39,999 nucleotides of DNA from IMG/VR virus record IMGVR_UViG_3300029952_000065. One strand, 5' to 3'. Below are positions 36,716-37,840 of this stretch, piece by piece. Below the pieces are notes generated by a model. It searched no databases. It was not told the origin of the DNA and saw nothing but the letters and a program-made list of their open reading frames with translations. A program made the position numbers and the translations under genes. Position 1 is the first letter of the stretch, and every line of letters begins with the position of its first letter. This DNA comes from a virus.

Positions 36716-36792
36716 GCCTCCATCGGCAACTGGATAGTCAACATCGCTTCGAACGATGATTAGTGTAAGATCGTACCTTACTGGGGGCACCA
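36716..36792 (+). tRNA. tRNA-Arg(TCG) with non-canonical T-loop
   Basis: Paralog of 36519-36595 (ccatcggcaactgga.agtcaac shared). Anticodon arm catcg-ctTCGaa-cgatg, T-arm gtaag-ATCGTac-cttac (A54/T58 in place of T54/A58) and CCA. Confidence 0.6.
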
Positions 36793-36797
36793 AGTTT

Positions 36798-37025
36798 ATG
36801 AAGATTAATTTTCGAGGACAAATGGTCGAAGATAGGTCTGGTATAGACGAAGATAAACAGTATCGTTGTACCGATTGTGGGAAGGTGACATTTGGTAAAG
36901 ATTTATCTTTAGTTTCTTACCAAACTTCAATGGAAGTAAGGGGAGAACTTGTTCCTACAGGAGAAATGGTAATTAACACTCGTCTGTGTCCCGAAGATAG
37001 AGGACATGTAGTAGAAGAGATTTGA
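36798..37025 (+). CDS. small Zn-ribbon protein
   Basis: First ATG after the tRNA (MKINFRGQ...); CTDCGK...C. Confidence 0.4.
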   Translation: MKINFRGQMVEDRSGIDEDKQYRCTDCGKVTFGKDLSLVSYQTSMEVRGELVPTGEMVINTRLCPEDRGHVVEEI

Positions 37026-37028
37026 TTT

Positions 37029-37115
37029 TTGTGGAGTAAACCGTAATTGGCAGCGGGCTGCACTGTTAATGCAGTGTCGTAAGACTCTGGGGGTTCGAGA
37101 CCCTCCTCCACAGCC
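37029..37115 (+). tRNA. tRNA with GTT anticodon (Asn-like) and 14-nt extended variable region
   Basis: Acceptor tgtggag/ctccaca, anticodon arm ctgca-ctGTTaa-tgcag, variable region containing gtc-gtaa-gac, T-arm ggggg-ttcgaga-ccctc and CCA. Confidence 0.55.
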
Positions 37116-37120
37116 AAATT

Positions 37121-37212
37121 TTAGCGCTCCGGTAGAACAGGTGGGTCTTCAACTCCCTTAGCTAGTTCATCGGTAAACACTCTTCGGGGTTGAAGCCGGG
37201 AGTAGCAGCGCT
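37121..37212 (+). other. long imperfect hairpin (about 90 nt), possible bidirectional terminator or structured RNA
   Basis: Outer stem tagcgct/agcgcta, inner stems gtcttcaactccc / ggggttgaagcc; flanked by aaatttt upstream and aaaaatttttatt downstream. Confidence 0.45.
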
Positions 37213-37334
37213 AAAAATTTTTATTGGGACGTAGGAAAACCGGCAACCCCACTGGGTTCTGACCCCAGCGACCAATTTGGTCACTGCATGTTCAAATCAT
37301 GCCGTCCCAGCCAAAAATGATATTTAACGATTAT

Positions 37335-37409
37335 TCCTGCGTAGCTCAGGGGCAGAGCGAACGGCTGTTAACCGTTTGGTCGGTGGTTCGAATCCATCCG
37401 CAGGAGCCA
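37335..37409 (+). tRNA. tRNA-Asn(GTT)
   Basis: Acceptor tcctgcg/cgcagga, D-arm gctc-aggggca-gagc, anticodon arm aacgg-ctGTTaa-ccgtt, T-arm ggtgg-ttcgaat-ccatc and CCA. Confidence 0.85.
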
Positions 37410-37484
37410 AATTTGGGTCAGGAGGTCGGCGGTCTCGTACCCGATCTTCCCGTATACTGTACGCCTTCGGGCTACAGGCAGATG

Positions 37485-37520
37485 ACGGGTGTAGCTCAGT
37501 AGTAGAGCACCTGATCTAAT
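37485..37520 (+). pseudogene. tRNA 5'-half remnant
   Basis: acgggtg-ta-gctc-agtagta-gagc is an acceptor 5' strand plus D-arm with no matching downstream anticodon or T-arm. Confidence 0.35.
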
Positions 37521-37613
37521 TTACTTTGAGCGAGTTACGTGGAAGGCAACTTTGTTCATGGAGGGCAACGACCAAAGCGACTCGCTCAATAAGTTTTGAA
37601 GTTTGAAGTCATG

Positions 37614-37684
37614 ATACACGTAGCTCAATTGGTAGAGCAGCGCCATTAACGGCGCTGATGTGGGTTCGATCCCCACCGTGAGGA
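37614..37684 (+). pseudogene. degenerate tRNA-like gene (6- or 8-nt anticodon loop)
   Basis: Good D-arm gctc-aattggta-gagc and T-arm gtggg-ttcgatc-cccac, but the anticodon stem gcgcc/ggcgc encloses only attaac, and the acceptor pairs 5 of 7. Confidence 0.4.
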
Positions 37685-37764
37685 AGGCTTCTTGGGAGAA
37701 GATAGACACTTGATCAGTGGACCGTTTCGTGAAATCCTTCAATCCCACCGGTTTTAGAAAGTTT

Positions 37765-37840
37765 GCGTTGGTAGCTCAATTGGCGGAGCACTCGACTCTT
37801 AATCGATAGGCTGTGGGATCGTTGCCCACCCAGCGCACCA
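37765..37840 (+). tRNA. tRNA-Lys(CTT) paralog with non-canonical T-loop
   Basis: Closely related to tRNA 2196-2271 (tagctcaattggc.gagca...gactcttaatc). T-arm gtggg-ATCGTtg-cccac (A54/T58); acceptor gcgttgg/ccagcgc and CCA. Confidence 0.65.

Follow-up and report, generated by a model that had tools for sequence, protein, structure and literature searches.

A T-Loop Variant with Exchanged Bases at Positions 54 and 58 in Phage-Encoded tRNAs and Its Recurrence in Phages and Bacteria

The stretch of DNA analyzed here (39,999 nucleotides (nt), IMG/VR record IMGVR_UViG_3300029952_000065; hereafter, the window) carries two tRNA genes, tRNA-Arg(TCG) and tRNA-Lys(CTT), whose T loops have A54 and T58 in place of T54 and A58. 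As judged from sequence comparisons, both genes probably encode working elongator tRNAs in which the tertiary pair between positions 54 and 58 is inverted. The exchange is most likely a natural, heritable variant of the T loop that is spread over many isotypes in phages and is present in some chromosomal tRNAs of bacteria. Below, tRNAs with A54 and U58 are called swapped and those with U54 and A58 canonical.

Two tRNA Genes of a Phage-Like Contig Carry A54 and T58

The T loops ATCGTAC (Arg) and ATCGTTG (Lys) had been noticed when the window was inspected by a model given only the letters and open reading frames (hereafter, the sequence-only reading), and the ARAGORN program calls both genes at the positions where they had been placed. 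The two genes, their T loops and three canonical tRNAs of the window that serve as comparators are as follows:

36716–36792, + strand: tRNA-Arg(TCG), 77 nt, CCA encoded, T arm GTAAG-ATCGTAC-CTTAC (A54/U58); ARAGORN cloverleaf.
36770–36776, + strand: T loop of tRNA-Arg(TCG), A54 T55 C56 G57 T58 A59 C60, with A54 at 36770 and T58 at 36774; from the sequence and the ARAGORN structure string.
37765–37840, + strand: tRNA-Lys(CTT), 76 nt, CCA encoded, T arm GTGGG-ATCGTTG-CCCAC (A54/U58); ARAGORN, and Rfam tRNA at 55.1 bits.
37818–37824, + strand: T loop of tRNA-Lys(CTT), A54 T55 C56 G57 T58 T59 G60, with A54 at 37818 and T58 at 37822; from the sequence and the ARAGORN structure string.
36519–36595, + strand: canonical tRNA-Arg(ACG), D arm equal to that of tRNA-Arg(TCG), T loop TTCGAAT; Rfam 32.8 bits.
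2196–2271, + strand: canonical tRNA-Lys(CTT), T stem GTGGG/CCCAC as in the swapped Lys gene, T loop TTCAATT; Rfam 69.1 bits.
1668–1745, + strand: second canonical tRNA-Lys(CTT), T loop TTCGAAT; Rfam 37.6 bits.

ARAGORN finds 19 tRNA genes in the window, and the remaining 17 all have T54 and A58, with TTC at positions 54–56. The U54·A58 reverse-Hoogsteen pair is not present in tRNA-Arg(TCG) or tRNA-Lys(CTT), both of which have A54 and U58; G53-C61, T55, C56, G57 and the GG of the D loop are all present in their ARAGORN structures. Each of the two forms a four-arm cloverleaf with a 7-base-pair (bp) acceptor stem, a D arm, an anticodon arm with U33 and a T arm, and for tRNA-Arg(TCG) the cloverleaf is also the predicted minimum-energy fold. 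The acceptor stems have zero mismatches and CCA is encoded in both genes, the latter in agreement with the sequence-only reading. Its description of the acceptor stems as perfect is correct in that they are unbroken, but not every pair is Watson-Crick, since each stem has one T4·G69 wobble. The same word had been used for the anticodon arms, and here the stem of tRNA-Lys(CTT) falls short of it, consisting of four pairs and a C27·U43 mismatch; the canonical tRNA-Lys(CTT) at 2196 likewise has A27·A43. Neither gene bears the marks of a pseudogene, that is, broken stems, lost invariant nucleotides and lack of conservation in relatives.

Both genes had further been taken for paralogs of canonical copies nearby. 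Canonical Lys(CTT) copies do exist, but they lie ~35 kilobases (kb) away, at 1668 and 2196. tRNA-Arg(TCG) is indeed an isoacceptor of the neighboring Arg(ACG), Arg(CCG) and Arg(GCG) tRNAs, but its TCG anticodon is the only one in the window, so it has no redundant copy there. Its unusual D arm is common to Arg(ACG) at 36519 and Arg(CCG) at 36308, and the D stem of tRNA-Arg(TCG) and its sister Arg(ACG) has an unusual length of 3 bp.

Positions 54 and 58 Covary and Partner Positions Are Kept

IMG/VR was scanned with a pattern consisting of a common D arm followed by GATCRT, which matched at least 120 stretches. The loci fetched for the listed matches contain 1,099 further tRNAs that do not fit the search pattern and are therefore unselected with respect to the T loop; the following counts refer to this set. 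Positions 54 and 58 are occupied by TA in 1029 tRNAs, AT in 44, AA in 14, GG in 5, TG in 3, CC in 2 and CA in 2. T58 is found exclusively together with A54, in 44 of 44 cases, against ~2.3 expected under independence (Fisher p = 1e-66). One-sided changes (T54 with T58, or A54 with G or C at position 58) do not occur in the set. The two positions thus covary strictly, as the sequence-only reading had supposed when it described a coordinated T54A/A58T swap. G-C and C-G at positions 54 and 58 are likewise absent from the set, while A·A and G·G do occur, and a Hoogsteen-type pair therefore fits better than an extension of the T stem by a Watson-Crick pair.

For further comparisons, we defined the A54·U58 T-loop class as tRNAs that have A54 and U58, keep T55-C56-R57 and G53-C61 and have a base other than U at position 60. 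Both window genes belong to this class, with C (ATCGTAC) and G (ATCGTTG) at position 60. The nucleotides around the exchanged pair are highly conserved: positions 55–57 are TCG or TCA in 148 of 149 swapped phage tRNAs, G53-C61 is present in 41 of the 44 unselected phage cases and in 89 of 89 cellular ones, and the GG of the D loop is found in 98–100% of swapped tRNAs. G52-C62 is more frequent in swapped (91–100%) than in canonical tRNAs (71%), and the number of unpaired stem positions per tRNA is lower (0.5–0.8 vs. 1.3).

Position 60 differs sharply between the two types of loop. In canonical loops, it is T in 83%, C in 14%, A in 2% and G in <1% of cases; the corresponding figures for swapped loops are T 1%, C 36%, A 50% and G 13%. 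In neither type is base 60 prone to be complementary to base 54, which is expected if base 54 must remain free for base 58. We infer that the avoidance at position 60 may reflect this need for a free base 54.

The stems were compared in two alignments. Nine A54/U58 Lys(CTT) tRNAs from independent contigs, the window gene included, have all 20 stem pairs unbroken, 15 of them with compensatory double changes, and A54 and U58 are invariant in all nine. When tRNA-Arg(TCG) is aligned with its Arg paralogs, compensatory changes are seen in 14 of 20 stem pairs. These patterns indicate that the stems of swapped tRNAs are under selection.

The Swap Recurs in Diverged Relatives of the Phage

Diverged relatives were reached through homologues (47–75% identity) of a 271-amino-acid protein encoded downstream, and their loci, designated by L and a number, were run through ARAGORN. 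A search of related phages for the same exchange had been proposed with the sequence-only reading; the exchange does recur in these relatives, in other tRNAs:

L013: identical Arg(TCG); Lys(TTT) with ATCGTTC.
L014: His(GTG) with ATCATAC; Lys(CTT) with ATCGTAA.
L018 and L020: Arg(CCG) with ATCGTAC.

Since the T stems differ between the swapped genes of the relatives, these are independent instances of the swap. The phage represented by the window itself has a third swapped tRNA, Lys(TTT), located ~0.7 kb beyond the end of the window (L006 12510–12585) and adjoined by a canonical Lys(TTT) (L006 12592–12667). Thus, for both Lys anticodons this phage has a swapped and a canonical version. L013 is mosaic; in place of the swapped Lys(CTT) it has another Lys(CTT), which is canonical and 88 nt long.

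Swapped tRNAs make up 7 of 57 tRNAs in the clade of the window, compared with 12 of 561 in the viral background described below (p = 0.0008), and they cluster in certain phage genomes, with 3–4 per array. The swap is, therefore, unusually frequent in this phage clade, in Arg, Lys and His tRNAs.

Copies of tRNA-Arg(TCG) are identical in 7 near-identical contigs as well as in L013. The seven contigs, which share an identical 271-amino-acid protein, are >99.7% identical to the window, so their identical tRNAs are uninformative on selection. Other searches for relatives returned little. A megablast of the tRNA cluster against cultured phages gave no match; the only cultured relative found is a 440-kb Salicola phage, by a distant protein match. 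A protein-based search of IMG/VR gave one weak locus, which has no tRNAs, and an IMG/VR scan with the anticodon arm of tRNA-Arg(TCG) retrieved unrelated sites only, among them the C54 gene of a 572-kb contig described in the next section.

The A54·U58 Class in Phages and Bacteria

Counting viral and genome loci among the matches listed, the A54·U58 class recurs in >250 distinct tRNAs. The swapped tRNAs of the IMG/VR loci among these matches are well formed and cover at least 27 anticodons and nearly all standard isotypes. The frequency of the class was estimated by neutral scans, in which the same D arm was required, any base was allowed at positions 54 and 58, and unique tRNAs were counted. 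Swapped tRNAs amounted to 12 of 561 (2.1%) in a viral sample from IMG/VR and to 1 of 208 (0.5%) in a metagenome sample, mostly cellular; the difference between the two samples is not significant (p = 0.20).

Among cultured phages, the swap is carried by Mycobacterium phage StubbySaigey (Gly GCC and Asp), Klebsiella phage FKP3 (His) and Stenotrophomonas phage DLP_6 (Phe and Ile). It is not present in T5 or in the examined region of XacN1.

Contigs of bacterial genomes contain at least 114 swapped tRNAs, each mostly the sole tRNA of its 8-kb locus, with at least 14 anticodons among the genome loci. At least 69 of the cellular cases are tRNA-Met(CAT), mostly from Bacteroidota and also from Patescibacteria and Actinomycetota. 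Others among the matches listed are His (Kiritimatiellia, Verrucomicrobia), Lys(TTT) (Alphaproteobacteria, Saccharibacteria), Phe, and Thr(CGT) (Myxococcota). Five cellular swapped tRNAs that were checked score 58–71 bits with Rfam, and one of the five sits between genes for a LacI-family regulator and an aminotransferase. Such occurrences with ordinary neighbors imply that the inverted pair is tolerated in ordinary cellular tRNAs.

The A54/U58 tRNA-Met(CAT) genes of Bacteroidota (L146–L262, e.g., L154 6072–6146) share a G1·U72 wobble, conserved at the top of the acceptor stem, and their D arm is of the elongator type. They are candidates for elongator Met or for lysidine-modified Ile2.

In phage arrays, a canonical partner with the same anticodon accompanies 6 of 108 swapped tRNAs, compared with 99 of 1162 canonical ones. 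With so few canonical twins, swapped tRNAs behave as ordinary members of the set rather than as spare copies, and the idea that they are spare twins was rejected.

Further combinations at positions 54 and 58 were seen in phage tRNAs, namely G54·G58 (GTCGGAA) and A54·A58 with A60 (ATCGAAA, ATCGATA). The loci with these two classes are L021, L053, L124, L170, L271, L294 and L322; and L033, L037, L041, L052, L067, L307 and L317. A separate case is an Arg(TCG)-like gene of a 572-kb IMG/VR contig (L004 7430–7505, − strand), which has C54 in the T loop CTCGACT and is uncalled by ARAGORN.

A Proposed Inverted 54·58 Pair and the Evidence Weighing Against It

In the usual T loop, the Watson-Crick edge of U54 pairs with the Hoogsteen edge of A58. 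In swapped tRNAs, the Hoogsteen edge of A54 would instead pair with the Watson-Crick edge of U58. Such an inverted pair could still stack on G53-C61 and close the U55-C56-R57 mini-loop, and the elbow contacts U55-G18 and C56-G19, and with them the L shape, would be kept. Swapped tRNAs may well be expressed, aminoacylated and used in translation. Given the chemistry of the methyltransferases, they should be unable to carry 5-methyluridine at position 54 (m5U54) or 1-methyladenosine at position 58 (m1A58), and both modification sites would be lost.

Phage tRNA-Asp genes that are orthologous and have the T stem AGGGG/CCCCT in common differ in the loop, which is ATCGAAA, ATCGATA or ATCGTTA. These variants suggest a path from U54·A58 through A54·A58 to A54·U58.

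Covariance-model scoring, one of the checks proposed with the sequence-only reading, was performed with the Rfam tRNA model RF00005 (gathering score 29 bits) and gave a divided result: tRNA-Lys(CTT) scores 55.1 bits, compared with 69.1 bits for its canonical paralog at 2196, and tRNA-Arg(TCG) is not recognized as a tRNA.

This last result is the first of several that weigh against the view that both genes encode working tRNAs with an inverted pair. tRNA-Arg(TCG) gave no Rfam tRNA match even at E <= 10 on a 131-nt stretch. Its pair A52-U62 is, moreover, rarely seen in swapped tRNAs of phages (7 of 149). An argument for purifying selection from the identity of this tRNA with its copy in L013 had to be dropped, since the flanking spacers and open reading frame are also 97–99% identical. 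The expression, processing and charging of the two genes are things that we infer. The geometry of the pair is deduced from covariation, and an inverted trans Hoogsteen/Watson-Crick pair would not be strictly isosteric with the usual one. Finally, an in vivo selection by Zagryadskaya et al. in 2003, with positions 54 and 58 randomized, reportedly yielded U-A, G-A and G-G and not A-U.

A swap penalty of ~14 bits, falling here on an atypical family whose canonical sister Arg(ACG) reaches only 32.8 bits, would be enough to produce the Rfam miss, which therefore need not indicate decay.

Alternative Explanations

The sequence-only reading had also suggested that the exchange is a way to escape T-loop-directed enzymes or nucleases. 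In that case, the loss of the U54 and A58 sites, or an altered recognition of the T loop, would let the tRNA evade a T-loop-directed nuclease, a modification sensor or decay in the host, or would mark it as "self" for a phage enzyme. We consider this speculative and rather unlikely. It would be in keeping with the higher rate of the swap in the viral than in the metagenome sample, though the difference has p = 0.20, and with the enrichment in the clade of the window and the 3–4 swapped tRNAs per array in certain genomes. This phage has swapped and canonical Lys tRNAs for both anticodons, tRNA-Lys being a classic target of anti-phage nucleases, and it invests in tRNA repair, with Thg1-like, RlaP and PNKP-like genes. 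However, the same T loop is fixed in chromosomal tRNAs of bacteria with ordinary neighbors, most tRNAs of the same phage arrays are canonical, pairs of swapped and canonical twins are uncommon (6 of 108), and no T-loop-directed enzyme was identified in the window.

We know of no nuclease that is affected by positions 54 and 58. A T-loop nuclease, the CdiA-CT of Burkholderia, reportedly cleaves between positions 54 and 55. The anti-phage tRNA nucleases in the publications examined act on the anticodon arm, and none of these publications speaks of the T loop. In the case of P2-OLD, resistance of phage tRNAs maps to the anticodon arm, and T-arm swaps have minor effects (PMC12445682); the T loop is unmentioned in a 2023 eLife study (PMC10264068) and in work on PARIS/AriB (PMC12409363). 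The nuclease-resistant tRNAs of these studies resemble those described here in being phage-encoded, in including Lys and in deviating at conserved places, and differ in that resistance lies in the anticodon arm (P2-OLD) whereas the change here is in the T loop. A broader proposal, which we hold to be doubtful, is that A54·U58 tRNAs with a non-U60 are a subclass barred from m5U54 and m1A58, which phages, and above all this clade, might keep as invisible or resistant to a host reader of the T loop or for a dedicated phage enzyme. If this were true, T-loop inversion would be a second tRNA-level route of counter-defense, beside mutations of the anticodon arm.

Another possibility is that the T-loop changes disable redundant copies, i.e., that the genes are decaying duplicates or pseudogenes. 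The failure of tRNA-Arg(TCG) to match the Rfam model, the two other Lys(CTT) genes in the window, the different canonical Lys(CTT) in the corresponding slot of L013 and the apparently defective tRNA-like gene nearby, at 37614–37684, are all compatible with decay. In both genes, however, all stems are intact and CCA is encoded, and tRNA-Arg(TCG) has the only TCG anticodon in the window. The double change recurs in many diverged tRNAs, with compensatory changes in their stems and with T55, C56, R57, G53-C61 and the GG of the D loop retained. Unpaired stem positions are fewer in swapped than in canonical tRNAs, and the single changes expected from decay are never seen in the unselected set. We therefore regard decay as very improbable. 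The earlier suggestion that the genes may be functional variants rather than pseudogenes is supported by the intact stems, compensatory changes, kept partner positions and recurrence.

It is just as hard to credit that the variant T loop takes these molecules away from the ribosome and into a non-translational role as a donor, primer or decoy. There is precedent in the staphylococcal tRNA-Gly species of cell-wall synthesis, non-ribosomal tRNAs in which the T loop is the altered part, and both swapped and canonical Lys tRNAs are present in this phage. Yet most swapped tRNAs of phage arrays are the sole ones for their anticodon, the class extends over at least 27 anticodons in viral and at least 14 in genome loci and is not limited to one or two special cases, and the elbow nucleotides and anticodon loops are normal.

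Lastly, T54A next to G53 creates GATC, present at positions 53–56 of every swapped T arm, and selection for a methylation or restriction site in the DNA was considered and rejected as having almost no probability, since GATC occurs in the window at chance frequency (147 sites vs. 146.6 expected) and a DNA motif explains neither the obligatory T58 nor the avoidance of T60.

Other Features of the Window

The window is a phage-like contig with large open reading frames on the + strand, and 12 of its 19 tRNA genes lie within 35.6–38.1 kb. Its genes include those for a NAD-dependent DNA ligase, an AAA ATPase, an RlaP-family RNA-repair nucleotidyltransferase, HNH endonucleases and a Thg1-like protein. 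The same contig is present in >100 public assemblies, with WOOD18 metagenomes among those examined.

Genes for a Thg1-like protein (tRNA-His guanylyltransferase/3′-5′ polymerase family), an RlaP-family nucleotidyltransferase and a PNKP-type HAD phosphatase are located at window positions 39–725 and 33108–33941 and at L006 1173–1406. Together, they look like a tRNA-repair toolkit placed beside the tRNA arrays. An 826-amino-acid protein encoded at 30351–32831 has the shoulder and repeat domains of the major vault protein, which is unusual for a phage.

Several tRNA genes of the window are atypical in other respects. Long variable arms are normally confined to Ser, Leu and Tyr tRNAs. Here, tRNA-Asn(GTT) (37030–37116, 87 nt) and tRNA-Gln(CTG) (37225–37313, 89 nt) have long, stem-forming variable arms; the Gln with the long arm is preserved in L013, L014 and L018, and the relatives have further long-arm tRNAs for Lys (88 nt), Trp (88 nt), Met (93 nt) and Arg(ACG) (87 nt). 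The tRNA-like gene at 37614–37684 scores 44.5 bits with Rfam; its anticodon loop has 6 nt, and its acceptor stem is mismatched at the top. The gene is conserved in L013, where one loop base differs, and it is perhaps defective, or else an unusual frameshift- or stop-related tRNA. At 39728–39801, Rfam detects a tRNA (36.6 bits) that is missed by ARAGORN. Its acceptor stem, anticodon arm (CCT, Arg) and T arm are present, but the D arm is almost absent and the variable region measures ~17 nt; in L013 and L014, the Arg(CCT) is normal. What looks like the 5′ half of a tRNA (GGGTGTAGCTCAGTAGTAGAGCACCTGATCT...) lies at 37484–37520, with no matching 3′ half nearby; it could be a fragment, or a gene that is split or interrupted.

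A repeat of ~155 bp is present at 24719–24870 and 35331–35483, in copies that are ~95% identical. Within the repeat are a conserved leader and a promoter close to the consensus (TTGACA, 17 nt, TATTAT). Both the Ser tRNA cluster and the Trp/His/Arg tRNA cluster have a copy upstream, and after each copy, directly before the first tRNA, there are a hairpin and a T-run. At 35564–35666, just upstream of tRNA-Trp, there is a weak match to Trp_leader (26 bits, below threshold).

Relation to Known tRNAs and Significance

Swapped tRNAs share with canonical ones (RF00005) the cloverleaf, the 5-bp T stem, the 7-nt T loop, G53-C61, U55, C56, R57, the GG of the D loop, the 7-nt anticodon loop and CCA. They differ in the exchange of bases 54 and 58, in having a base other than U at position 60 and in the absence of the m5U54 and m1A58 sites.

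The eukaryotic initiator tRNA, with A54, A60 and an A54·m1A58 pair in its T loop, is the sole A54 exception listed in a review of T loops (PMC7912444). It has in common with swapped tRNAs A54, the loop start AUCG and a non-U60 (A in the initiator and in half of swapped tRNAs; C and G in the window genes). The difference is that swapped tRNAs have U58 instead of A58 and are bacterial-type elongators of many isotypes. A closer match to the initiator-type T loop is the phage class with A54, A58 and A60 (ATCGAAA, ATCGATA).

Zagryadskaya, Doyon and Steinberg are said to have found in 2003 that G54·A58 and G54·G58 mimic the reverse-Hoogsteen pair, so that the 54·58 pair is replaceable by mimicry. 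G54·G58 loops (GTCGGAA) also occur in the phage tRNAs studied here. The commonest natural alternative here is A54·U58, which reportedly was not among the combinations selected in that work.

No mention of A54 together with U58 or T58 in a tRNA was found in the literature searched, though an earlier note in tRNA compilations is possible. The inverted pair with its position-60 rule, its frequency of ~2% among phage tRNAs and its presence in many Bacteroidota genomes thus appear to be undescribed.

The finding matters in several ways. Few tertiary pairs of tRNA are regarded as being as invariant as U54·A58, which is also the site of two widespread modifications. Since general covariance models penalize swapped genes, and one of the two studied here was missed, some real phage tRNAs may be missed or labeled as pseudogenes. 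The swapped tRNAs are natural test cases for the contributions of m5U54, m1A58 and pseudouridine-55, and cultured systems in which the inverted pair can be tested have been identified. They also make evasion at the level of the T loop a concrete, so far unsupported, hypothesis for the conflicts between phages and their hosts over tRNA.

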